Assembly: GCA_022750055.1 (NCBI GenBank)
Contig: JAKIWL010000003.1
Coordinates: 55,300 to 119,299 of the forward strand
Direction of reading: 5' to 3'
DNA: 64,000 nt
Source: Thermoplasmata archaeon
GTDB lineage: Archaea; Thermoplasmatota; Thermoplasmata; Lutacidiplasmatales; UBA184
Part shown: positions 2,702 to 63,053 of the stretch, one piece after another
Position numbering within the stretch: position 1 is the first letter of the stretch
Layout: each line of letters begins with the position of its first letter
The notes under the pieces: model-generated
What the model saw: only the letters and a program-made list of their open reading frames with translations
What the model was told of the DNA's origin: nothing
Database searches by the model: none
Position numbers and translations under genes: made by a program

Positions 2702-5700
2702 CTACGAACTCGAGCCCTGGATGGGAGCGTCGGTGGGACCGTGAAAGTTCCCCGCGATGGTCTGCAGGTCATTAGGGTCCATGAGCCCCGTTCTCAGAGG
2801 GACGAAGATCCGAGCCCCACGGTCGCGGGCGATCTCGTCGATCTTGGAGAGGAACGCGGTGATCCGGGCGATCCCGTGGATGGTCACGAGGTACTCGAGG
2901 CTCTCTAGGAAGATCGCCTTCGCGTCGTGATCGTTGAGTTCCGAACGAATGCCGAACTCGATCCCGTCCAGGTCTCCCGGACGGGCGGTCGGATTCGCCG
3001 GCCCAAGCGGGATGTTCGAGAGCCAGACCACCTGGACCACCCGACTCCCGAGGGCCGCCCGTCGGGCTCCGGGCGGTTCGCGGGTGATGCAAACGCCCCG
3101 GCCCCCACCCAGGGTGAGGTCGAGGAAACTCGACCACGCGCCTTCGGCGTCGCTCCCTCGCCAAACCTCGACCCCGGTCGGCTGCGGCGGCGGAGGTGGG
3201 GCGAGGGGGACCGGACGGGGCTCGAACGGGCTGGGGGTCGGGGGTTCGCGCCGTTCGGGCGAGGGGGCGATCGTGGGCACGACCATCGACGGGGCGGGCG
3301 TGGCGGCTGGGCCGGGGAGTATCGATACCGGCACCCCGGGCGGTGGCGGCGGCGTGATCGGGGTCAGCACCGGCGCGGCGAAGCCCCGCGTGGAGGGGAT
3401 CATCTGAACCTTCGGAGGCTGGACCCGAGGCGGGATCCGCGTTACTCGCACGGGGGGGGGCGAAGGCGGAGCTGCGGGGACCTCGGTCACCGGTATGGGT
3501 GGGGGCGGGACGGCTCGTCGGGCCACGGGGGCCGGCTCCGGTGCGGGGACCGGGAGCGGGGGAGGGATCGCGACGACTGGGGAGGGGGTCTTAGGGACCG
3601 AGCGAATCGGAGGGGCCCGGGGCGCGCGTTCCGGGACCGTCCCTCCATACTGATGAACGATCTCGGCGGCCACGAAATACCCGAATCCAGGGAGCTCGGC
3701 GATCTTTTCGAACGGAGCCGAACGGAATTCATCGACCGTACGAAAGCCGGCGTCCCACGCGGCGGCCATCTTGGCCGGACCCAGCAAGGGCCGTCCGACG
3801 TCGGCCGCTAGCTGGTCGGAGAGCTCCAGGATCGAATCGTAGCGCTTCAGGCCCGCCTCGTCGAGTTCGAGCTCCGCGTCGGGCTCCTTGGGTGCGATCC
3901 GGCGCACCCGGGCCCCCCTCGGGCGGGCTTTCGGATTCTTCAGCCGATGCGCTCCGAGCGCCACGCCGGGGATCCAGACGGCCCATCGGTCCCCGCGTCG
4001 AGTCCGCCCGGTGGATCGCTCGGCCAGGGGAAACCGGATGTCGTCTGCTACGAGCTCGAACCGCCCGCAGCGAAGATGCGTCGCGAGCGCGGCGGCGTGG
4101 TGTCCGAGCTCGATCGCGAGCGCCCCGGTCGCCGCGGCGAGGATGCGCTCGGGGGGGGCTTGGAGCCCGGCCCGCCGCAGGCGCTGTCGGATATGCCGGA
4201 TGACCGCGAGACCGTCCAGGGAGAGCGACGGCAGGCTGCCGTGGGCGCTCTCGGTCGGGTCGACGAGCAGGATCTCGCCATCGCGCCAGGGCACCGGGAT
4301 GACGCATTCGGGAAGCGACTCCATGAACTCGAGCATCCCCGGCAGGATCTTCACGGTCTGGCCGTCCAGTACGACGTTCAGGGAGCCGTTGCGCATTCCC
4401 TCCATCGCCTTGCGGCCCGAAAAGCGCTCGAGGAGGTGCAGGATCCGCCCGGTCCGGCTCCCGTAGACCCGTTGGATCTCGGCGGGAACGGGTCGGGCCT
4501 CGATCCGCCGACCCGACCAGGCGTGATTGGGGGAGTCGATCTCGATCTGGCCGGTTCGGCCCACGCGCGCGAGCACAGGGGCGACCTGCTGAAGCTCCGC
4601 TGCGAGGGCGTCGTCCCCGACGAGCAAGACCACACGGGGGAGGATGGAGTCCGCCGGTAAGCCGACCTGTCGGCGGGCCGAGCGGAGCGCTCCGGCAAAT
4701 TCCACCCATCGGTCGAACTCCTTCTCCCGTTCCGCGTCGACCAGCACGTCGCCGATCGCGGTCAGCCTGCGTTCGAAGAGGGACGGGGAGTCCGGCCGGA
4801 AGGCCTGGGCGATCGCCTCCGACGTGAAGGGAGCGATCGGTGCATACTGCTCCACCCACAGGTAGACGACCCGCGCGAGGACCTGACAGGTGGCGGCGCG
4901 CACCGACGGAGACGACGAGGGAAGGAGTCGGGTCCGGGCGAGCGGCAGATACCCGGTACCGACATCCTGTTCCATGAAGCGAGAGAGACGGTCGAGGGCG
5001 CCCTGGAAATCGAGCGCTTCAAACAGCACCCGCACCTCGTTGCGGACTCGTTCGAATCGAGACAGGAGCGCCCGGTCCTCGTCCGGAAGCTCGGTGAGAT
5101 GCTCGATCGAGTAGGCGATCTCGACATGGACCCCGTCCGACTCCATCGTTTCGAGGACGTGGCGGGCCAGCTGCCAGAGCTTGCGGAGTCGCCTCGACTC
5201 GTGCCGGAAGCGGTCGGAGAGGTGACTCGGGCGAAGCGACGGGTTCGTCGCTCGGATCAACGAGGCTCGAAGGGCGTCCGCGCAACCCCCCGCCGACAGA
5301 AGCTCGGCGTCGCTGTCGGTGGCCATCGTCGGGAGTCGGACGAGCTTCAAATCGCCTGGCCGCACTCCGGCGGCCTCTCGGGCGATCAGATGGTGGAGGA
5401 GCGTCGGAACGCGACGCCGGTCCGGGACGAACAGCTGAGCACTCTCCGATGCCCCCACCTCCGCCCACACGGCCAAGGCCCCAGAGATGGCGGGCAGCAG
5501 GTCCCGACGAACCGGGTGCAGGGCCGTGGCCCCGCATGGGCAGCGTTCGTCGAAGGAGGGGGCGTGGAGGCGGTCGCATGAGTCGCATTCGAGGAGCACG
5601 GGAGCCGATGCCTCATGGCTCTCGACCGTCTCGCTCACGGGCCACGGAACCACATCCCGGGCCGGTGGCAGCGAATCGTCCGGGAGGAGGCGGGCGAACT

Positions 5701-6883
5701 CCCGCTCGATCGGCGCAGGCAACCTCGCCATCTCCACGCACCACGCTCGGCCCGGAAGCCAGATGAGGCTCGAGCCGCAGATCGAACAGTGTGGGACGCC
5801 GCGTCGGACCGTCAGTTCGGCAAAGATGAGGCCGGACTCCTTCAGGTCCCGAAGGACGAATGCATCGGCCGCTTCGAGGGGCAGTCCCGTGTACTTGTGG
5901 CGGGGCTCCGGCCGCACGATCCCCCCGGGCGTGACTACGAGCGGCCCGTCGACCCTCAGAGCGGCGGCCGCCTGGGAATCGGCGGCGCCATGCCGTGGAA
6001 CCAATCCGACGATCCCGGTACCCGAGTCGCCCACCTCGCTCGAAGCGAGGACCGTGCCCGCCGGGGGCGTCAGATTCGCGAGCGGCGGACACTCCGTGAG
6101 CAGTGGGTGTACGTACGCGGTCCCGGAGAGCTCACCGCCGGGTCGCTCTTCCAAGACCTCGACCTCGCAACCCGGGAGCCACTCCTTCAGTCTCGGGATC
6201 GCCGATCTGGCAAGAACGATCCGCTCGACCCCGCCCCGCCGTCGGTAGACCGCCGTCACGTACGGGAGGTCCGGGCTGACGAGCACGGCCGACGTCCCGA
6301 GCAGCTTCCACGGATTGTCCGTCCAGACGAGCAGGCTCGTAGGCTGACTCGAGTCCCGGATCGGGAATCGGACGAGGTACGCCGGGCCGCGCTCCGATTG
6401 ATACACGATCGTCTCGGGGGTCCTCGGGGTCTCACACTGCGGGCAGGAGCGGAACGGGAACCCCCGCGCGGCCAGGATCCCCGATTTCGCGAGGCTTTCG
6501 AGCATCCGTTGCCGTTGTGCCGCGCCCTCGGGGGTCGAGAATCCGATGGGTACCCCGTCCGCCGTCCACGCCGCGACTGCTTCGATGGCCGCTCGGGCGA
6601 AGTCGAGCGTAGGGGCGGCGACGCGGGGTCGTTCCGGGACCAGACCGACGGCCCGACGACCGGTCATGGCGAGGTAGCGAGCCTCCACGTCGGCGCTGAC
6701 GAACCGGACCAGCCGGTCGAGGGGGGCCTCGGTCTCCCCGATCGGCCCGAAGAGCTGCCGAACAATCGCCCCGCCCACCGGTCCGACCGTGCCCGGGCTC
6801 GGGGGCAGCCCGCGCGTTGACCAGAGCGCGCGGGTGCTGGCTTCGATGGCGGCTGGGTCGTAGACCGCCGGAAGTATCGGCAT
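2702..6883 (-). CDS. 1393-aa multidomain protein: degenerate class Ia aminoacyl-tRNA synthetase (Ile/Val/Leu-type) paralog, then HhH motif, Pro-rich linker and C-terminal DUF835 domain
   Basis: N-terminus [14 protein letters not shown] is followed by [32 protein letters not shown], which aligns to the P-x-x-N/TG-x-x-HxGH…RY region with both His replaced. The editing-domain signatures CPQCETP and [24 protein letters not shown] (WTTTPWTL-like) and [21 protein letters not shown] are present. KLVRL sits where KMSKS is expected, and an anticodon-binding-type helical region follows ([13 protein letters not shown]…[10 protein letters not shown]). After these come an HhH-like [20 protein letters not shown], a ~150-aa Pro-rich segment (nt ~3165-3620), and a C-terminus with DUF835 hallmarks ([36 protein letters not shown]…IFVPL). 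GC3 was sampled by hand at 4501-4560 and came to 17/20. Confidence 0.7.
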
Positions 6884-7034
6884 GCGTCGGAGGGGCCGGG
6901 TCGCGAGCTCGACCCACCCTCCGAGGAAATTGATGGGAAAGGCGCTCGATAAACCTTGTCAGTCGACGGGCAACGAACTCTGCCGGCAACCCTTATCAAT
7001 CGCGCCGCGTCCCCGCGGTCGAGAGGCTTCGCGA

Positions 7035-7421
7035 ATGGCGTGGACTCAAGCGGAGGTCCGCGAACTCAAGGAGGGCCGATACATGCTGATCGAAGAGGAG
7101 CCGTGCCGGATCATCAGCATCCAAACCTCGAAACCTGGGAAGCATGGCGAGGCCAAGGCCCGGATCGACGCCGTCGGCATCTTTGACGGGTCGAAGCGCA
7201 GCGTAGTCTATCCGGTCAAGCACAAGGTTCAGGTGCCGATGATCGGCAAGAAGTCGGCCCAGGTCCTGTCTCTCACGGACGCCGAGGTCCAGCTCATGGA
7301 CCTCGAAACGTACGAGACCTTCTCGCTCCCCCTAGACGCCGACCTGAAGGGCCAGCTGTCCCCCGGCACCGAGATCCAGTACCTGGACGCGATGGGCAAG
7401 CGCCGAATCACACGGCCCTAG
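7035..7421 (+). CDS. eif5a: translation initiation factor 5A (aIF-5A)
   Basis: Hypusination loop [13 protein letters not shown]. Start set at the internal ATG 7035 ([27 protein letters not shown]), giving the typical ~128 aa. The upstream part of the track ORF is low-complexity. Confidence 0.85.
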
Positions 7422-7653: not shown

Positions 7654-10600
7654 ATGACCGGGTCGGGCGGCATGGGAACGATGCCCTCCTCCCGCCTGAC
7701 CCGACTCCTTCAGGAGAAGGCCGAGGCGCTCAGGAAGCGTCGTCAGATCGCGGAGGCCGCGACCGAACAGTCGGAGGGTCGGCTGCGGTTGCTCGCCGAG
7801 GTCGGCGTGGAGCTGCCCGAGACCGCCGCTCGTCAGGAGCGAATCCGGGATTGGCAGCGCAAGTCCGATTGGGAGGCCTCGGACGTCGAGGCGCAATCGC
7901 TCACCCAGTACATCGATGCAACCGCCCCCGAGGCCGTGAGCGTCCGGCGTCACGAATTGTTGGACCGTGTCGAGAGCCTTCGCGCGGCCGGCAGTGCGGT
8001 ACCCCCCGAGTTGGACGAGCTCCTCTCGGAAGTGCGAGAGCTCACGTTTCGCACCGATCTCCTCACCGAGATCACCACCCTCGCCCGGTTCGCGACGTTG
8101 GTTAGGGGGGTCCAGGAGGGCCTGGCGAACGGGGCTCGCCGCCAGGTCATGGCGGTCGCCCGCTGGGTCGGCGTGCCCGCCGACGAAGCGGCCGAGATCG
8201 ACCGGCGAATTTCCGAGATACTGCCCGCCCCGGATGCGGGCCCCTCCGCGGATTGGGTCGACCGACTCCAGGCGGCGATCCCCGAACTGATCCCCGCCGC
8301 GGTGGCGAGGCGCGAGCGAAGCCGGGCGGAGGCGGAAGCGGTGGTGACGCTCGGACGGGACATCGGCCTCGCGGTCGTCGAGCTGGAGGAGGCCCTCGCC
8401 GCCGATGCACGGGCCGCTCCGTCCCAGTGGGGGGAGACCGTACCGAGCGTCGAGCAGGCGACGTCCCGGGTCCGCTCAGAACTTCGCGGCCGGGTGAGCC
8501 AGGTCCTCGGCTACCTCACGACCACGTTGGATTCACTCCCGGAGCACGGGGCCGACCCGGGCGATGCGGTTGCGGAGATCGCCCGAATCCAGGCCCAGGT
8601 CGAGACCGCGGGCGTGATGGAGCTCGGTCCGCTGCTCCAGCGGGCGCGCGAGACCGCCGAGGAGCCGATCGTCTCGGTGGTCGCCGGGTTGCTCGATGAG
8701 GTTCGGCCCAAGCTCGTCGAGGCGCGTGAACTCGGGCGCGACCCGAGCGAGGTGTTCGCTTCCATGAACCGAGCGCGCGAGGCGCTCCGGCTGAAGATCT
8801 ATGGCGAGGCCCTCGCGGCGAGCGTCGAGGCGATCGACCGGGTCAGCCAGCTGACCTCGGACCTGGACGCGGCGCGAGAGGAAGCCGAAGCCCTCGGCCG
8901 ACTCCTCGGCCGGCTGGAGACGTTGAAGGTCTCGGTCGTTCCCTTCCGCGCCGCGCTCGCGGAGGTGACGGCCCAGCTCGACCACTTCACGATCGACCGA
9001 GCCCGCGCCACCCTACGGGACACGGTGCGCGCCCTCGGTCGAGAGACCGCCCGGTACTTCGGAGCGGAGATCCAGCGACTGACCGCCGCCGCCGACACGG
9101 CGCGGCAGCGGGGATTCCTGCCCGAGGGCGTCCCTGACGACCTGGAGAAGGCCCAGCATCACATCGACGCGGGGGCGCTTCCGGAGGCCGGCGAGGCGAT
9201 CGCCCAAGTGGACGTGCGACTGCGTACCGCGGCAGGCCCGTACATCTCCCGGCGGGTCGAGGAGATGCGCCGGGGGTTCGAGGAGATCCGGGATCCGGAC
9301 CTCTCCATCAGCACCCTGCGCTCGCTCGCGGATTCCGATATCGCCCTGCGGGTGAAGGAAGACCTGACCCAATCGCTAGAGAGCCTTCGGCAGGCGGAGC
9401 GCGAGTTTTCGGCCGCGTTCGCGGTCGAGTCCTCCTCCCTCCTCGAGGCGCTCGAGGAACGCCAGCGGGTCCTAGAGGAGATGGGCGGAGCCGGGTCGGA
9501 GTTCCTTCGTCAGACCGACGAGATCCAGCAGATATTCGACATGGGCGATTTCGTGAAGTGCGCGCTCGCGGCCCGCGAATTCCTCACCTCGACCGAGGAG
9601 GTCCAGAAATCTCGGGCCGAGGAGGGGATCTCCCACGCAAAGCTCGACCTCGTCGAGATCGACCAATTTGGGCTCGCCAAGGCAGAGCTCACGAAGCAGT
9701 TCGAATCCGCCCAGCAAGACCTCGCGGCGGGGCGGTTGGTCGAGGCCTACCGGGGCGGGCTGAGCGTCCACTCGGGAGCGGAGAAGGTCCTCGGCGGCGC
9801 CCGGCCCGCGGCCGCGCTGCTCACCCAGTCGAAGGAACGGCTCCTCCAGATCGAACAGAGCGGGACCGACACCGGTGGTTTCCAGGATGAGGTGACGGCG
9901 GCCGAGGCTGCCTTCCGGTCCCTCGATTTCGAGGGGGTGCGCGCGCACCTCGGACGCCTGCAAGAACGCCTCGACCGGGCCGCCCAGGCGGAAGAGGTCC
10001 GCCGGATACTCGGCGAGTCAGACCAGCTCGCGGCCGATGCGACCCGCCTGGGGATCGCGGTCGAGGGGATCGAAGCGAAGCTCACGGAGGCGCGAGGCAG
10101 CCTCGGGGCCGCGGGGGGTCTGGAGGCACGGGCCCTTGCCTACGAGGCCCACCAGGCACTCGTCCAGACGCTGCGGCCGGTCCTGGAGGAGAACCTAAAA
10201 TCCGTCGAGCAGGACTTCGAGATCGCTCGTCGTTTGGGGGTCGACATGGGGCCGTTGTCCGGCCTCCTGTCCGACGCCCGCGGTCGACTCTTCCTCCCCG
10301 TCCCGCTGGGCGCCGCCGATCTGATCGAGAACGCCCGAGGGCAGCTGTCCCAGACCCGCGGCCTCGTGGAACATGCCGAGCGCAGCGCGAAGCGGGTCGA
10401 GGAGGCGTTTGGCCAGGCCGAATTGTTGCGGCTGGCGACGCCGGCCATGCGAACCCGGGTCGAAACGCTCGAGCACCAACTGTCCGAACGCCAGTTCGCG
10501 CGCACCGTCGAGACCGCCGGCCCGCTCGAACAGGAGATCCTTCAAACCACGACCCTTCACCTCACCCGGACGATCGCCGGCCTGCAGGGCCTCGTGGTGC

Positions 10601-12141
10601 GGGCCCGTCAGGAAGGGATCCCGACGGCCGCCGCCGAGCACCTGCTCGCCAAGGCCCGCGAGGCGCTGCAGGAGGGTCGACCGATGGACGCCCTCCAGCT
10701 CGCGGCCCAGAGCGAAGGGGAGATCGAACGGGTGGGACTCCAGACCCGGGTCGCCCGCGGGGCCCTCGAAGCGCTCGACGCCATGCGGGCGCGGCTCGAC
10801 GCGGAAGGGATCCGGTTCCCCCAAGGGCCGTCGATCACGGCGGAGGCTCGATCGTCGTTCGACCGTCGGGAGTACGCCCGGGTGCTCGAGCTCTCGTTGG
10901 AGGCGAGCGAGTTGCTCACGCAGACCCGGGAGCTCTATCGAAAGGCGCACGACGCCCTCACCGTAGCGAGCGGCACGGTCCAGGAGGCGCTCACGATGGG
11001 TGCGGAACCCGCGGAGGTCAACGCGATGCTCGGCCGGGCTCGGGAGCTGTCGGAGGCCGGCGATTACTCCGGGGCCGCCGCCCGGGCTCGCGAAGCGATC
11101 GATCTTTCCTCCTGGGCGATCGAACGCCGTTACTCCGGCACCATCACCGAGGTGCGCGGCCTGCTTCAAGCGACGCGCTCCGAGGGGTCTCCCGAGGCCG
11201 AGGGCGTGGCGAACCTGTTGAAGGAAACGGAGGCGTTCCTGCAGGCCAAGCAGTGGGCGAAGGCGGGGGAGCGGTTGGCGCGAGCCCAGGCAAAGGCGTT
11301 CCAGGTGCTCGACCGAGTGGTCGCCAGCCGAATCGACCGGATCGGCCAGCGGGACGCGCATCTCGAACCCGCGGGCCCGGCGGAGACGGAACGGCGCCGG
11401 GCGTGGCGGGCCGAGGTCGACGAGGCCCGGGCCCGAGGGGCCGTTCCGGAGGTCATGGCCTCGATCGACCAGGAGGAAGAGCGCGCTCAGGACTCTCTGA
11501 GGGCCGGCCTGGAACGCCGAGTCTCTGAGCTCAAGGACCGCCTCTGGGTCGGGGAACGCCTGGGCCTCGACGCGACCCCCGCGATGGAACACTTCAGCGA
11601 GGCTCGAATGGCCCTCGACCAGGGCCGGTTCGACGTCGTGGATCGCGAGGTGGTCCAGGGAAACTCGGCCCTCGAGGGGCTGATCCGAGAGGGGATCTCG
11701 CGCCGCGCGAAGCAGATCGAGACGGAGCTACTGTACGCTCGGGACGGTCTGAGGGTGCGCATCGGGGACATGGACCAACGGCTCTCGTCCGTCGACCTCA
11801 TCGCTCGCGAGGGACGCCTCGTCGAGGCCGGGCGGACCCTGCTCGCGGTCGAGGAGGACCTCAACCAGCGAAAATCGCTCCATCGTCAGCTGATGAACCT
11901 CCACTACCTGATCGAGGCGGCTCTTCGACGCGCCTCGGAGGCACGCCTAGACGCCGGGGACGCCCGACGCCTGTTCGAGGCGTCGGTCCGAGAGTCGGCA
12001 ACGAGCTACGCCGAAGCGATCGTCAAGGCCCGCGCGTCCTTGAAGCTCGTCGACGGCCTGCTCAAGGCCTCCGAGCCGCCGACCGCATTCTGGCCGTTCA
12101 AGCGACCGGCCCCGGACCCTGCGGAGCGTCGCGGTCAGTAG
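7654..12141 (+). CDS. giant (1495 aa) Ala/Glu/Arg/Leu-rich alpha-helical repeat protein of unknown function
   Basis: A 4.5-kb uninterrupted ORF with a hand-sampled GC3 of 17/20 at 9001-9060. There is no P-loop or other catalytic motif. Units of roughly 70-100 aa recur (e.g. AREALQEGRPMDALQLAAQSEGE…, ARMALDQGRFDVVDREVVQGNSALEGL…, ARELSEAGDYSGAAARAREAIDLSSW…). Coiled-coil or spectrin-like character is predicted from composition only. Confidence 0.65.
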   Translation: MTGSGGMGTMPSSRLTRLLQEKAEALRKRRQIAEAATEQSEGRLRLLAEVGVELPETAARQERIRDWQRKSDWEASDVEAQSLTQYIDATAPEAVSVRRHELLDRVESLRAAGSAVPPELDELLSEVRELTFRTDLLTEITTLARFATLVRGVQEGLANGARRQVMAVARWVGVPADEAAEIDRRISEILPAPDAGPSADWVDRLQAAIPELIPAAVARRERSRAEAEAVVTLGRDIGLAVVELEEALAADARAAPSQWGETVPSVEQATSRVRSELRGRVSQVLGYLTTTLDSLPEHGADPGDAVAEIARIQAQVETAGVMELGPLLQRARETAEEPIVSVVAGLLDEVRPKLVEARELGRDPSEVFASMNRAREALRLKIYGEALAASVEAIDRVSQLTSDLDAAREEAEALGRLLGRLETLKVSVVPFRAALAEVTAQLDHFTIDRARATLRDTVRALGRETARYFGAEIQRLTAAADTARQRGFLPEGVPDDLEKAQHHIDAGALPEAGEAIAQVDVRLRTAAGPYISRRVEEMRRGFEEIRDPDLSISTLRSLADSDIALRVKEDLTQSLESLRQAEREFSAAFAVESSSLLEALEERQRVLEEMGGAGSEFLRQTDEIQQIFDMGDFVKCALAAREFLTSTEEVQKSRAEEGISHAKLDLVEIDQFGLAKAELTKQFESAQQDLAAGRLVEAYRGGLSVHSGAEKVLGGARPAAALLTQSKERLLQIEQSGTDTGGFQDEVTAAEAAFRSLDFEGVRAHLGRLQERLDRAAQAEEVRRILGESDQLAADATRLGIAVEGIEAKLTEARGSLGAAGGLEARALAYEAHQALVQTLRPVLEENLKSVEQDFEIARRLGVDMGPLSGLLSDARGRLFLPVPLGAADLIENARGQLSQTRGLVEHAERSAKRVEEAFGQAELLRLATPAMRTRVETLEHQLSERQFARTVETAGPLEQEILQTTTLHLTRTIAGLQGLVVRARQEGIPTAAAEHLLAKAREALQEGRPMDALQLAAQSEGEIERVGLQTRVARGALEALDAMRARLDAEGIRFPQGPSITAEARSSFDRREYARVLELSLEASELLTQTRELYRKAHDALTVASGTVQEALTMGAEPAEVNAMLGRARELSEAGDYSGAAARAREAIDLSSWAIERRYSGTITEVRGLLQATRSEGSPEAEGVANLLKETEAFLQAKQWAKAGERLARAQAKAFQVLDRVVASRIDRIGQRDAHLEPAGPAETERRRAWRAEVDEARARGAVPEVMASIDQEEERAQDSLRAGLERRVSELKDRLWVGERLGLDATPAMEHFSEARMALDQGRFDVVDREVVQGNSALEGLIREGISRRAKQIETELLYARDGLRVRIGDMDQRLSSVDLIAREGRLVEAGRTLLAVEEDLNQRKSLHRQLMNLHYLIEAALRRASEARLDAGDARRLFEASVRESATSYAEAIVKARASLKLVDGLLKASEPPTAFWPFKRPAPDPAERRGQ

Positions 12142-12590: not shown

Positions 12591-12847
12591 CGGGGGAGTC
12601 ACTTGCGGTGGCACCGACGCCTCGCTATTTCTGGTTGGCGGTTCTGGCAAACCCCCCGTCTCGACGGTTCGATGCGTGGGCCGAATGCCCCTCGGGATGG
12701 GCGCTTCGGCTGGGTGGGAGCCTCGTGGCGCGAACACGACTCTCCGGCCTCCCAGAGAGTTCCTTCCCAGCCGACCGAACCCCTGCCGACGGGCGCGGCC
12801 GGTGAGGCGCAACTCTTTCAATACCAAGCCGAATGGGCGCGCCCGGC

Positions 12848-12950
12848 GCTCCCGTAGTCTAGTGGTCAAGGATAGAGGCCTCTCGAGCCTCTGACGCGGG
12901 TTCAAAACCGCCGGGCGTTCGGCCTGGTGGGGAAACTCCCGCCGGGAGCA
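12848..12950 (+). tRNA. tRNA-Glu (anticodon CUC) with a ~30-nt non-canonical intron in the 3' strand of the T-arm (approx. 12910..12939)
   Basis: Acceptor GCTCCCG pairs with CGGGAGC (12943-12949), discriminator A. D-arm is GTCT/AGTGGTCAA/GGAT. Anticodon stem GAGGC/GCCTC with loop CTCTCGA gives CUC. T-stem GCGGG with loop TTCAAAA pairs with CC…CGC = CCCGC only after removal of GCCGGGCGTTCGGCCTGGTGGGGAAACTCC. The intron-less alternative (12841..12917) has a perfect acceptor but three T-stem mismatches and a poor D-arm. Confidence 0.55.
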
Positions 12951-23456: not shown

Positions 23457-24229
23457 GCGCGAGCGAAGCTCCCCTGACCGCCGGCCTGTCGGATCGCGCC
23501 GAGCGCGGCCTCGGTCGCTCGCTTCAGGACCTCTTCCGCTTGTTTGTACTGGGTCCCAGAGACTTGGACCCGGTAGCGGGGCGCGCCGACGTATTGGACC
23601 TTCACCGACGTCGGGTCGGTCTTCTCGGCGGCGGCCAAGGCCTCGCGGATGTGCCCGACCCCGTCGGGGGAAGGGTCCGTGAGTTCGAGGACGCCGCGAA
23701 CCGCGATATGAGGCGGGACCAGGTTTTCCTCGGCGACCTTCAAAAAGGCCGAGACCCAGGGAACCTTGCCGTTCTCCGTGGCGAAGCGCTTCGGGTCCGC
23801 CGAGGCGACCTCAAACGCGGCGAACAGGCTCCCGTACTTTTCCACGAGGGAAGCCCCAAAGAGAGCGTAGGCCCCCTCGACGTCGCTCTTGAGCTGCTCC
23901 GCGACGACGGCGACCAGCCGGTTGGCACGCTGCTCGTTCTTCCAACCCTGGACCTTCTCCCGGCGCTGGTGGTCGTTGATCCGTTTGAGCGACAGGTCGA
24001 CCTGGTTCTTGACCGGGTCGATCCGCAGGACCCGGGCGACGATCTTCTGCCCTTCGCGGATGTGATCCCGGATGTACTTGACCCACCCGGTGGCCACTTC
24101 GGACAGATGGATGAACGCCTCCCGCCCACCGAACTCGTCGAGGGTCACGAACGCGCCGAAGTTGCGGATCGAGGTGACGGTCCCAACGACGAGTTCGCCT
24201 TCCTCCGGCAGTTCGCCTCGGAGCGGCAT
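23453..24229 (-). CDS. eif2a: translation initiation factor 2 alpha subunit (aIF-2alpha)
   Basis: S1 domain GELVVGTVTSIRNFGAFVTLDEFGGREAFIHLSEVATGWVKYIRDHIREGQKIVARVLRIDP. Start set at the internal ATG 24229 (MPLRGELPEEGELVV). The upstream extension of the track ORF overlaps rps27e in another frame. Confidence 0.85.
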   Translation of the reverse strand: MPLRGELPEEGELVVGTVTSIRNFGAFVTLDEFGGREAFIHLSEVATGWVKYIRDHIREGQKIVARVLRIDPVKNQVDLSLKRINDHQRREKVQGWKNEQRANRLVAVVAEQLKSDVEGAYALFGASLVEKYGSLFAAFEVASADPKRFATENGKVPWVSAFLKVAEENLVPPHIAVRGVLELTDPSPDGVGHIREALAAAEKTDPTSVKVQYVGAPRYRVQVSGTQYKQAEEVLKRATEAALGAIRQAGGQGSFARA

Positions 24230-24884: not shown

Positions 24885-25523
24885 ATGGCTGACCGCACTC
24901 CGCTCGACGCCGTGAACGAGGCCCTCCAGGGCGCGCCCGAACGGAAGTTCCCGGAAACCGTCGAGGTCTCGATCAACCTGAAGGAACTCGACCTCTCGGT
25001 CCCGAAGAACCGTATCGAGGACGACGTTCCGCTTCCGAACGGACGGGGTCGCAACGTCAAGATCGCCCTGTTCGGCACCCCCGAGATGTGTCAAAAGGTC
25101 CAGAATGTGGCGGACCTCGTCTTCGTCCCCGCCCAGCTCGACGACCTTCTCAAGGACAAGCGCGCTGCGAAGAAGCTCGTCGAGGAGGTGGATTTCTTCC
25201 TCGCCGAGGCCCCATTGATGCCGACCATCGGAAAGCGGCTGGGAGTCGTCCTAGGGCCACGCGGCAAGATGCCGAAGCCCGTCGCGCCCGGAAGCGATCC
25301 GACGAACCTGATCCAGGCGCTCAAGCGGTCGATCCGCATCCGATCGAAGGGCAATCGCACGTTCCACGCGCCCGTCGGCATCCGGACGATGCCTCCGCTG
25401 CAGATCGCCCAGAACGTGGACGCCGTACTCGCGAGGGTCCTCGGCAAGCTCGAGCGGGGACGGAACAACATCGATTCGGTCTACGTCAAGACGACGATGG
25501 GACCGGCGGTCCGGATCTGGTGA
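24885..25523 (+). CDS. rpl1: 50S ribosomal protein L1
   Basis: 212-aa protein with L1-family features (…[13 protein letters not shown]…[12 protein letters not shown]…[12 protein letters not shown]…). Confidence 0.9.
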
Positions 25524-25531
25524 GAGGGCCG

Positions 25532-26392
25532 ATGCCGGGACGGGAGTCGGTACGCCCGGAGCGGCTGGAGTCCGTCGCCCGATTGAAACGCACCCTCGTG
25601 GCCGCCCCCATGACGGCGCTCGTGGGAATTCGCGGCGTTCCGGCGTCCGCCTTGCAACGCATGCGGCGAGAGCTGCGGGAGCGGGGCCACCCAATCGCCG
25701 TCTCAACGAACACACAACTCCGACACGCGATCGAGGAAGCGAGCGAGCAACGCCCCGCGTTGAGGCCGCTGCTGGAACATGTCGTCGACCAGACGGCGGT
25801 GTTGACGGCCCAGGGGAATCCCTTCTCGTTGGCAGGCGAGTTTGCCCGAACCCGCTCCCCGACGCCGGCCCGAGGGGGCGAGGTGGCCCCGAAGGACATC
25901 CTGGTGCCCGCCCAGACCACGAGCTTCAAGCCCGGGCCGATCGTCGGCGAATTGCAACACGCCGGCTTTCCCGCGGCCATCGAAAAGGGGAAGGTGGTCC
26001 TGAAGCGGGACATCATGATCGTGAAGTCGGGGGCGACGATCTCCAGGGAGGTCGCCGGGATGTTGACCCGTCTGGAGATCTTTCCGCTCGAGGTTGGCCT
26101 CGAGCTTCGGGCTCTCCTCGACGGCGACACGTTCTACCAACCGCAGGTCTTGTCGGTCGACCTCGACGCGCGGCGGGCCGACCTGTCTCGGGCCCATCAC
26201 CAGGCGCTCGCCCTCGCGATGGAGATCGGCTACACGACCCCGGCCACGATCCCGCTCCTGCTCGCCAAGGCGCACCGCCGGGCCATCGCGCTGGCGGTCG
26301 GCGCTGGCTACCCGACGAAGGCGACCCTTCCGGCCTTGCTCGCGCGCGGTCTGAGAGAGGCCGCCGCGCTTCAGAACCTCACGGGTGCCTAA
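25532..26392 (+). CDS. rpl10: 50S ribosomal protein L10 (acidic ribosomal protein P0 homolog)
   Basis: Start ATG 25532 ([23 protein letters not shown]…), 9 nt after the L1 stop. L10/P0 N-terminal domain pattern. It lacks the acidic tail shared with L12. Confidence 0.85.
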
Positions 26393-49418: not shown

Positions 49419-50231
49419 GTGACGGAGGGGGAACCCGGTGAGCTTGACGTTCTCTTCCGGATTGCGTACGCCGTTCACCGCGCGGTCAACCAGTCCCGTC
49501 GGTCCCCGAGCCGCGGGACGATCGTCGGAATGGGTGCGTTCGGAAGTCCCACCGAGGAGATCGACCGGGCCGCCGAGGCCCAGGTGTTCTCCTCCCTCGA
49601 GGCGGAGGGGGTCGATTGGGACGTCCTCAGCGAGGAGGCCGGCCTCGTTCGGCGCGGAGGGCGGCGCACGCTCGTGCTCGACCCGGTTGACGGAAGCCAC
49701 AACGCGCTGCGCGGCGTGCCGTTCGCCACGGTCTCCCTTGCCCTCGGTTCGAAGAACCTCGCAGGGGTCGACATCGGCGTGGTCCACGACCTCTACCGGG
49801 GCCACACCTTCTGGGGGGTGCGGGGGGAGGGAGCGTTCCGGGACGGCCATCGGATCCACCCCCGCGCGTGGGACCCTCGAACCGAGCTCTTCCTTCTCAA
49901 CCTCGGCCGCCACGCGTCTCCGCGGTCCGCCACCTGGGCCGCGAAGGGCCGGCGGATCCGATCGCTGGGCTGCGCGTCGTATGAGATGGCCCTGATCGCC
50001 GAGGGGGCGGCCGACGCCTACTTCTTCGAGAACGACCCACCGACGAGCAACCTGCGGGTCACCGACATCGCTGCAGGATACCGGATCCTGCTCGAGGCCG
50101 GCGGCGGGGCCACCGACGCGCTCGGGAAGCCGGTGGACCGGGTGCCCCTGCATCTCGACGAGCGGACGAGCGTCTTCGCCTGGGGGGACGCGACGTTCGC
50201 CTCGAAGGCCCATTCGGAGGGATACCTCTGA
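49419..50231 (+). CDS. inositol monophosphatase / fructose-1,6-bisphosphatase family (IMPase/FBPase; possible NADP phosphatase)
   Basis: GTG start. Motifs DPVDGS and EE…, and WDPRTELFLLN. 270 aa. Confidence 0.8.
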   Translation: MTEGEPGELDVLFRIAYAVHRAVNQSRRSPSRGTIVGMGAFGSPTEEIDRAAEAQVFSSLEAEGVDWDVLSEEAGLVRRGGRRTLVLDPVDGSHNALRGVPFATVSLALGSKNLAGVDIGVVHDLYRGHTFWGVRGEGAFRDGHRIHPRAWDPRTELFLLNLGRHASPRSATWAAKGRRIRSLGCASYEMALIAEGAADAYFFENDPPTSNLRVTDIAAGYRILLEAGGGATDALGKPVDRVPLHLDERTSVFAWGDATFASKAHSEGYL

Positions 50232-62828: not shown

Positions 62829-63053
62829 ATGGCGATCGAGGACGAGCTCTCCGGGAATGCGGTAAAGGTGTACAAGGCGATGAAGGAGCTCGGCTATCTG
62901 AACGAAGAGAAGATGGGTACCGCCGAACGGATCACCCAATCGGCAAAGCTTCCCAAGACGATGGTCATGAACGCCCTGCAGGACCTTCAGACGAAGGGAT
63001 TTGCCCGCCGGAAGGTGCGCGAGAAGGCGGCGGGCTACTTCCTAACGAAGTAA
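62829..63053 (+). CDS. small winged-helix protein (74 aa), hypothetical
   Basis: AVKVYKAMKELGYLNEEKMGTAERITQSAKLPKTMVMNALQDLQTKGFARRK has the wHTH pattern. Confidence 0.4.
   Translation: MAIEDELSGNAVKVYKAMKELGYLNEEKMGTAERITQSAKLPKTMVMNALQDLQTKGFARRKVREKAAGYFLTK

Follow-up and report, generated by a model that had tools for sequence, protein, structure and literature searches.

The tRNA-Glu(CUC) gene at 12848-12950 on the plus strand raises the question of what the roughly 30 extra bases in its T-arm are, between which two nucleotides of the tRNA they are inserted, and by what kind of machinery they could be removed. The gene lies in the window, by which we mean the whole 64,000-nt stretch of archaeal DNA analysed here (G+C, 67.8%). 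The original prediction was a T-arm intron of about 30 nt at the non-canonical position 62/63, leaving a mature T-loop TTCAAAA and depending on a splicing endonuclease of relaxed specificity. Every element on which this prediction drew was found in the window at the place given for it. For the acceptor 5' strand GCTCCCG (12848-12854), the sole exact complement is CGGGAGC at 12943-12949; the anticodon arm reads GAGGC-CTCTCGA-GCCTC with the anticodon CTC at 12882-12884, and the T-stem strand GCGGG (12896-12900) meets its complement only past about 30 extra bases.

We put the probability at about 0.9 that this is a functional tRNA-Glu(CUC) gene with a 30-nt intron of the endonuclease-removed, bulge-helix-bulge (BHB) type at position 59/60, between tRNA nucleotides 59 and 60. 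With this reading, the gene is divided as follows.

12848-12950, plus strand: tRNA-Glu(CUC) gene, interrupted by the proposed 30-nt intron.
12848-12906, plus strand: 5' exon, tRNA-Glu nucleotides 1-59, with the acceptor 5' strand, D-arm and anticodon arm; its 3' part holds the variable loop TGAC, the T-stem strand GCGGG (12896-12900) and T-loop nucleotides 54-59, TTCAAA (12901-12906).
12907-12936, plus strand: proposed intron of the BHB type, 30 nt, position 59/60, ACCGCCGGGCGTTCGGCCTGGTGGGGAAAC.
12937-12950, plus strand: 3' exon, nucleotides 60-73, with T60, CCCGC (12938-12942), CGGGAGC (12943-12949) and the discriminator A73 (12950).

Removal of an insert restored a canonical cloverleaf by the scores of two programs: deletion of the 30 nt raised the ARAGORN score from 111.3 for the native gene to 123.8, and the Rfam tRNA model gave 44.1 bits for the native gene and 68.2 bits for orthologues identical to the spliced product. 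The cloverleaf was restored in the window by four different 30-nt registers, three of which leave the T-loop TTCAAAA and one TTCAAAT. In a BHB, a 4-bp helix separates two 3-nt bulges, in which the splice sites lie (PMC4090602), and we scanned all pairs of cut sites for an outer helix, a 4-nt central strand, a 3-nt bulge cut after its second nucleotide and an inner helix, a geometry derived from the canonical 37/38 case and from PMC4090602. When all registers of the window were scanned, the full hBHBh' motif appeared in one only, with the cuts at 12906/12907 and 12936/12937, where the outer helix h has 5 bp, the central helix H has three of its four pairs and the inner helix h' has 9 bp. The parts of the motif in this register are listed below.

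12896-12900, plus strand: 5' strand of the outer helix h, which is the T-stem; pairs with 12938-12942, invariant and 100% paired.
12901-12904, plus strand: exon strand of the central helix H, U54 U55 C56 A57, set against intron nucleotides 12931-12934 as U-A, U-A, C-G and an A57xG mismatch.
12905-12907, plus strand: bulge 1, A58 A59 / A, with the predicted 5' splice site at 12906/12907; geometry according to PMC4090602.
12908-12930, plus strand: inner helix h', a 9-bp intron hairpin formed by CCGCCGGGC (12908-12916) and GCCTGGTGG (12922-12930) with the loop GTTCG (12917-12921).
12931-12934, plus strand: intron strand of the central helix H, GGAA.
12935-12937, plus strand: bulge 2, A C / T60, with the predicted 3' splice site at 12936/12937.

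The A57xG mismatch at the inner end of H is the sole departure from the strict 3-4-3 form in the window. In a relaxed motif a bulge or a flanking helix is missing or the bulges are irregular; here, the two 3-nt bulges and the two flanking helices are all in place, and we therefore class the motif with the canonical hBHBh' and not with the relaxed HBh' or hBH forms. Contrary to the original prediction, a near-canonical motif of this kind, with a central helix of 3-4 bp, does not call for an endonuclease of relaxed specificity.

Motifs of this quality are rare: among 200,000 shuffles of the intron, an equally good BHB arose 11 times in the same register, and about 29 motifs of equal strength occur in 128 kb (both strands of the window, 89 intron lengths). 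In the unconstrained fold of the 103-nt precursor, the acceptor strand pairs with the distal 3' strand, the T-stem is kept and the intron hairpin stands beyond a 7x7 internal loop (z = -3.76). RNAfold did not form the central helix unaided and predicted the 7x7 internal loop instead, and a hand-drawn structure combining the cloverleaf with the BHB lies 5.3 kcal/mol above the minimum free energy (MFE). Because the central helix is absent from the MFE structure, we used spacing and covariation as evidence and not the MFE itself.

Homologues were retrieved from species-representative genomes with a pattern made from the D-arm and the anticodon loop, which gave at least 119 loci, nearly all of them in Thermoplasmata MAGs. 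At least 97 genes, the window counted, carry an insert of 26-32 nt at the same site, which together with the scores and the BHB motif bears out the prediction of a T-arm intron of about 30 nt; uninterrupted genes among the matches listed numbered 12, eight from Thermoplasmata and four from Micrarchaeota. All counts over 97 genes given here and below refer to the interrupted genes among the matches listed. Their 97 intron sequences are all distinct, and the 3' exon TCCCGCCGGGAGCA is invariant in 97/97. The 5' exon is the same in 79/97, and the other 18 differ solely at anticodon-stem positions, with pairing kept.

The motif was conserved in a manner that follows the geometry of the BHB. In the 97 listed genes, U54 faces A (85) or G (12), U55 likewise faces A (87) or G (10), and C56 faces G without exception. 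A57 faces U in 23 genes, which thus have the full 4-bp helix, G in 71 including the window, and A or C in three, so the BHB geometry is general in these genes but the strict 4-bp central helix is confined to a minority of them (23/97). The third nucleotide of bulge 1 varies (T 41, G 29, A 26, C 1), and in bulge 2 T60 is invariant and the sequence ACT is found in 77/97. Unconstrained folds of the T-arm plus intron kept the T-stem in 97/97 listed genes, and most of them showed a 7x7 internal loop followed by a hairpin of 8-11 bp, which is the spacing of a BHB.

Covariation was counted in an alignment without gaps, obtained by removing nothing but the variable tip of the hairpin. Pairing as hBHBh' was found in 89.6% of cells, compared with 81.0% in shuffles (none of 500 reached the observed value) and 32-60% in slid registers. 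In h', double-sided changes were seen in all 8 scored pairs, amounting to 108 cells compared with 31.5 in shuffles. The helices are held by compensatory change while the intron sequence drifts.

The same genes decide between the registers. A constant T-loop, TTCAAAT, across the 97 listed genes is obtained in the 59/60 register only. The exons of the window joined at 59/60 give exactly the sequence of the intron-less orthologues L016, L028 and L100, and the intron-less orthologues carry T60, not A60; the mature loop is accordingly TTCAAAT and not the TTCAAAA first proposed. Whereas the window read by itself leaves four registers, the comparative evidence picks 59/60, and we place the predicted junction there, at 12906/12907 and 12936/12937.

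Position 62/63 would put the intron at 12910-12939, in the 3' strand of the T-stem, with a relaxed BHB built by a helix between the intron and the nucleotides just upstream of the gene. These belong to the following feature.

12835-12847, plus strand: putative 5' leader, containing GCCCGGC, with a presumed start point and presumed removal by RNase P.

A perfect cloverleaf is restored by this register in the window, and the leader sequence GCCCGGC (12841-12847) is indeed complementary at 7/7 positions to GCCGGGC (12910-12916) of the intron, so that this part of the original observation stands. In the 97 listed genes, however, the 62/63 register restores the T-stem in only 63 and fails in 34, and position 60 of the T-loop, T in the intron-less orthologues, becomes variable. 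The all-register scan found no BHB at these junctions. The leader pairing is a property of this window only, being the one place where GCCCGGC is complementary to intron nucleotides 4-10: in a permutation over the 97 listed loci, the leader matched its own intron at 3.82/7 positions and the intron of another locus at 3.83/7, and the best leader-intron helix scored 5.58 for own introns and 5.63 for the between-locus control. The proposal that a BHB is built from leader-intron pairing thus fails, and we consider a 62/63 intron very improbable.

Gene finders read the locus differently. On the native gene, ARAGORN called a contiguous tRNA at 12848-12920 and Rfam one at 12848-12919, and the intron mode of ARAGORN (-i), which handles anticodon-loop introns only, left the call in the window unchanged. 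Taken literally, these calls describe an intron-less tRNA of 72-73 nt (12848-12919/12920), the downstream CCCGCCGGGAGCA being a leftover duplicate of the 3' end; its scores (ARAGORN, 111.3; Rfam, 44.1 bits, above the gathering score of 29) and a direct repeat, CCGCCGGG, at 12908 and 12939 fit such a duplication. An intron-less gene should have a contiguous conserved 3' half and a 7-nt T-loop, but in this model nucleotides 1 and 72 pair as G-U, U3xC70 and G53xA61 are mismatched and the T-loop is 6 nt long. The intron hairpin, which is different in every homologue, supplies the 3' part of the model, whereas the distal 3' end is invariant in 97/97 listed genes and is the strand with which the acceptor pairs in the MFE structure of the precursor.

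The behaviour of the programs on the homologues argues against the contiguous model as well. Of the 97 listed native genes, ARAGORN missed 23 and called the other 74 with shifting 5' ends, a 3' end that was always wrong and scores of 100-116; the spliced versions were called in 97/97 cases with scores of 123-126. The Rfam tRNA model, applied to nine other intron-bearing genes, gave 32-39 bits for six (four of them partial) and no match for three. A covariance-model match to the intron-less gene had been named in advance as evidence against an intron. Such a match formally exists, at 44.1 bits, but it is a partial mis-alignment whose score falls 24 bits short of that of the spliced sequence and whose 3' part shows no conservation in relatives. 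We regard the intron-less gene as barely credible. The companion expectation, that standard scans would mis-call or miss the gene, proved right for both ARAGORN (23/97 listed genes missed, 74/97 with wrong ends) and Rfam (partial, low or no matches).

tRNAscan-SE 2.0 in archaeal mode looks for non-canonical introns by default (PMC8450103) and is the tool that was applied to these MAGs (PMC9287336), so the intron may already sit silently in the annotation. We found no published mention of this tRNA-Glu intron in a literature search of partial coverage, in which "59/60" could not be searched literally.

The scans also returned observations on other tRNA sequences. In the GC-rich Thermoplasmata loci (L002-L120), ARAGORN -i reported many implausible tRNAs with introns of 100-2500 nt and scores of about 100-110, and such calls are a false-positive hazard in DNA of about 70% G+C. 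A permissive Rfam scan showed no further partial tRNAs in the window, and the fetched Thermoplasmata loci contained no other credible tRNA genes. Matches L043 (~6891-7071), L105, L066 and L120, from Nanoarchaeia/Nanoarchaeota MAGs, follow tRNA-Glu(CUC) through the anticodon loop and then run into unrelated A/T-rich sequence, which points to a split gene or to a long intron located at 37/38 or close by. For L043, ARAGORN -i gave a 181-nt gene with an 89-nt intron and a mislabelled anticodon.

Could the insert be kept? The gene anatomy is read from DNA, and neither the T-stem nor the acceptor helix is prevented from forming by the insert, so one may imagine a mature tRNA with an enlarged T-loop and an extra hairpin, or a decaying pseudogene. 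We judge this very improbable. A retained insert would disrupt the T-loop/D-loop core, and the conservation tracks the needs of a BHB, namely the exact 7x7 spacing, the wobble-compatible changes opposite U54 and U55 and the covarying hairpin, which is the mark of a splicing signal and would not be expected of an extra arm with a function. Invariant exons in 97 listed species, across a neighbouring protein with 36-67% identity, are not expected of a pseudogene, and GAG is the main Glu codon in the genome. In five long ORFs, GAG was used 273 times and GAA 90 times; with GAG as the main Glu codon, the tRNA-Glu(CUC) gene is needed.

The neighbouring protein is encoded by a 1495-aa ORF at 7654-12141 (plus strand), without a Pfam match and directly upstream of the tRNA gene. 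The same gene is syntenic upstream in at least 82 Thermoplasmata loci, of which 79 carry the intron and 3 do not, and the tRNA locus is therefore orthologous. Its product in intron-bearing loci is 36-67% identical to the window copy (median, 40%), and that in the intron-less syntenic loci about 30% identical. The ORF encodes a large, conserved, clade-specific protein. These data fit a single old acquisition of the intron, which was then inherited vertically while its hairpin drifted freely, and this is the history that we infer.

Mobile elements often integrate into the 3' halves of tRNA genes, and the insert has a short direct repeat on either side. Both would suit a scar of a mobile element, either an att-site duplication left by an integrase or the remnant of a group I/II self-splicing intron. 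However, the insert is only 26-32 nt long with no element inside, compared with the hundreds of nucleotides and conserved helices of a ribozyme core, it occupies the same nucleotide in 97 listed species and it has the architecture of a BHB. For the 30-nt insert of the window, no group I/II model matched, no Rfam family other than tRNA did so at this place, and no Rfam intron family appeared even at E up to 1. The chance of such a scar is, in our view, close to negligible.

The host is archaeal, as had been predicted, since a thermosome (634 bits) is encoded in the window together with a P0 protein that has the archaeal/eukaryotic insert. The lineage is not that of the Thermoproteales, which had been implied, but Thermoplasmatota, order UBA184 (Lutacidiplasmatales). 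This placement came from the thermosome, which mapped to contig JAKIWN010000002.1 of GCA_022750015.1; JAKIWN appears in the supplement of PMC9287336 as the MAG SubAcS11-52 of that order, obtained from subsurface acidic soil in Scotland. A conserved box stands 23-37 nt upstream of the mature 5' end in homologues and 24-38 nt upstream in the window; its form in the window is given here.

12810-12824, plus strand: promoter-like A/T-rich box CAACTCTTTCAATAC, the window variant of the homologue box GAAAGSCTCAAAGAG, with a putative BRE/TATA role.

In the 95 homologous upstream regions among the matches listed, which are otherwise of about 70-80% G+C, A/T content peaks at -37..-35 and -31..-27. A TA peak follows at about -14/-13 in homologues, corresponding to about 12833-12834 in the window.

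Several other features of the window were recorded in passing. The 1393-aa ORF at 2702-6883 (minus strand) matches only a tRNA-ligase anticodon-binding domain (residues 603-745) and DUF835 (residues 1255-1377), and no catalytic synthetase domain was found in it at E <= 1e-3; an unusual fusion, a divergent synthetase and a pair of genes merged into one ORF are all possible readings. In the 434-aa P0/L10 ORF at 25088-26392 (plus strand), the L10 domain begins at residue 157, and translation probably begins at a codon much further downstream than the first in-frame start. Three sub-threshold Rfam matches were a bZIP/Hac1-type non-canonical intron (RF04247) at 50038-50103 (minus strand; 27.3 bits, E 0.69), CRISPR-DR20 at 23599-23632 (plus strand; 26.2 bits) and the C/D-box sRNA sR44 at 62876-62928 (plus strand; 21.6 bits). 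All three are probably due to chance, although a genuine C/D-box sRNA is conceivable at the sR44-like site.

Given an intron at 59/60, splicing may proceed as follows. The T-stem would stay intact in the precursor and act as the outer helix, U54-U55-C56(-A57) would pair with the 3' end of the intron in a short central helix, and the rest of the intron would fold into the 9-bp hairpin as the inner helix. This would leave two 3-nt bulges on opposite strands, A58-A59/A and A-C/U60. Each bulge would be cut by the archaeal splicing endonuclease (EndA) between its second and third nucleotides, and an RtcB-type ligase would join the exons into a 73-nt tRNA with the standard T-loop UUCAAAU, the intron being released. 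The predicted spliced junction is GGGTTCAAA/TCCCGCCGGGAGCA (RNA: ...GGGUUCAAA/UCCCGCC...), and that of a circularised intron would read ...GGGGAAAC/ACCGCCGG....

The genes for EndA and RtcB were found neither in the window nor in the fetched loci; for EndA, we used a loose catalytic-motif regular expression and tblastn with the M. jannaschii EndA (query checked against PDB 1a79). Every form of EndA cleaves a canonical BHB whatever the tRNA body around it, T-arm loops included, and the EndA of Ferroplasma (Thermoplasmatales) is a homodimer that cuts minimal BHBs (PMC8707768). The alpha'2 type of EndA has been assigned to the euryarchaeal Cluster II (PMC5829648), which we take to include Thermoplasmata, and from this phylogenetic position the enzyme of the host is presumably of the alpha'2 type. 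The alpha4 and alpha2 types need the strict 3-4-3 motif (PMC3239211), a caveat for the proposed splicing because the window and 73 other genes among the matches listed are mismatched at the fourth central pair.

A further proposal, which we consider unlikely, is that a single ancient acquisition has been carried at the same nucleotide of the sole GAG-specific tRNA through an order expected to have the "strict" alpha'2 EndA, with three quarters of the genes having a non-standard central pair. If this were true, either the EndA of the order would be broader in specificity than is credited to alpha'2, or the intron would be kept for a function. Possible roles would then be to force the T-loop modifications at 54-56 to take place after splicing, or to shield the 3' half from integrating elements.

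The mechanism proposed here is textbook, and the value of the locus lies in annotation and comparison and not in new concepts. It supplies the correct model of a gene whose tRNA decodes the dominant Glu codon of widespread acid-soil archaea, a group in which simple finders give a truncated, low-scoring or absent gene. The 97 independent introns at one site, among the matches listed, form a data set for the sequence rules of BHBs in the T-loop. They also represent an intron at a non-canonical position that is stably inherited outside TACK and DPANN, where such introns are usually discussed. What is notable is that the intron is conserved in about 100 species within one euryarchaeal order and that its central helix so often contains a non-standard pair.

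The position itself has a precedent. Pre-tRNA-Pro(GGG) of ARMAN-2 (Ca. Micrarchaeum acidiphilum) has an intron at 59/60 with a strict hBHBh' (PMC3239211), and the combination of 59/60 with hBHBh' is thus already documented and the mechanism ordinary. The insertion point in the T-loop and the class of motif are the same as in our gene, and an hBHBh' at 59/60 implies that the T-stem serves as the outer helix and nucleotides 54-57 as the exon strand of the central helix. Unlike the present case, the ARMAN-2 tRNA-Pro belongs to a DPANN host with the broad-specificity epsilon2 EndA and has a second intron at 53/54, whereas here the gene is a tRNA-Glu with a single intron, found in about 100 species of a Thermoplasmatota order, and A57 is usually opposite G. 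Pre-tRNA-Cys(GCA) of ARMAN-2 has a 13-nt intron at 59/60 with a relaxed hBH/BHL motif, which was cleaved in vitro (PMC3239211). It shares the position with our gene and is the experimental proof that an archaeal EndA can excise an intron at 59/60, but its motif lacks the second bulge and the inner helix, while here both bulges and both flanking helices are present.

The introns of Thermoproteales, Thaumarchaeota and DPANN (PMC4033280, PMC5829648, PMC8450103) are likewise of the BHB type away from 37/38 and likewise hamper tRNA finders. Those lineages have (alpha-beta)2, epsilon2 or loop-bearing EndAs and many introns per genome, often with relaxed motifs; here, a single near-canonical intron is found where an alpha'2 EndA is expected. 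With the canonical introns at 37/38 (PMC4090602), the intron shares the 3-4-3 plan of the BHB, the predicted cut after the second bulge nucleotide, the expected use of EndA and RtcB, and constraint on the BHB part alone while the rest varies freely. The difference lies in the part of the tRNA that is used, which is the anticodon stem with nucleotides 32-35 in the canonical introns and the T-stem with nucleotides 54-57 here.
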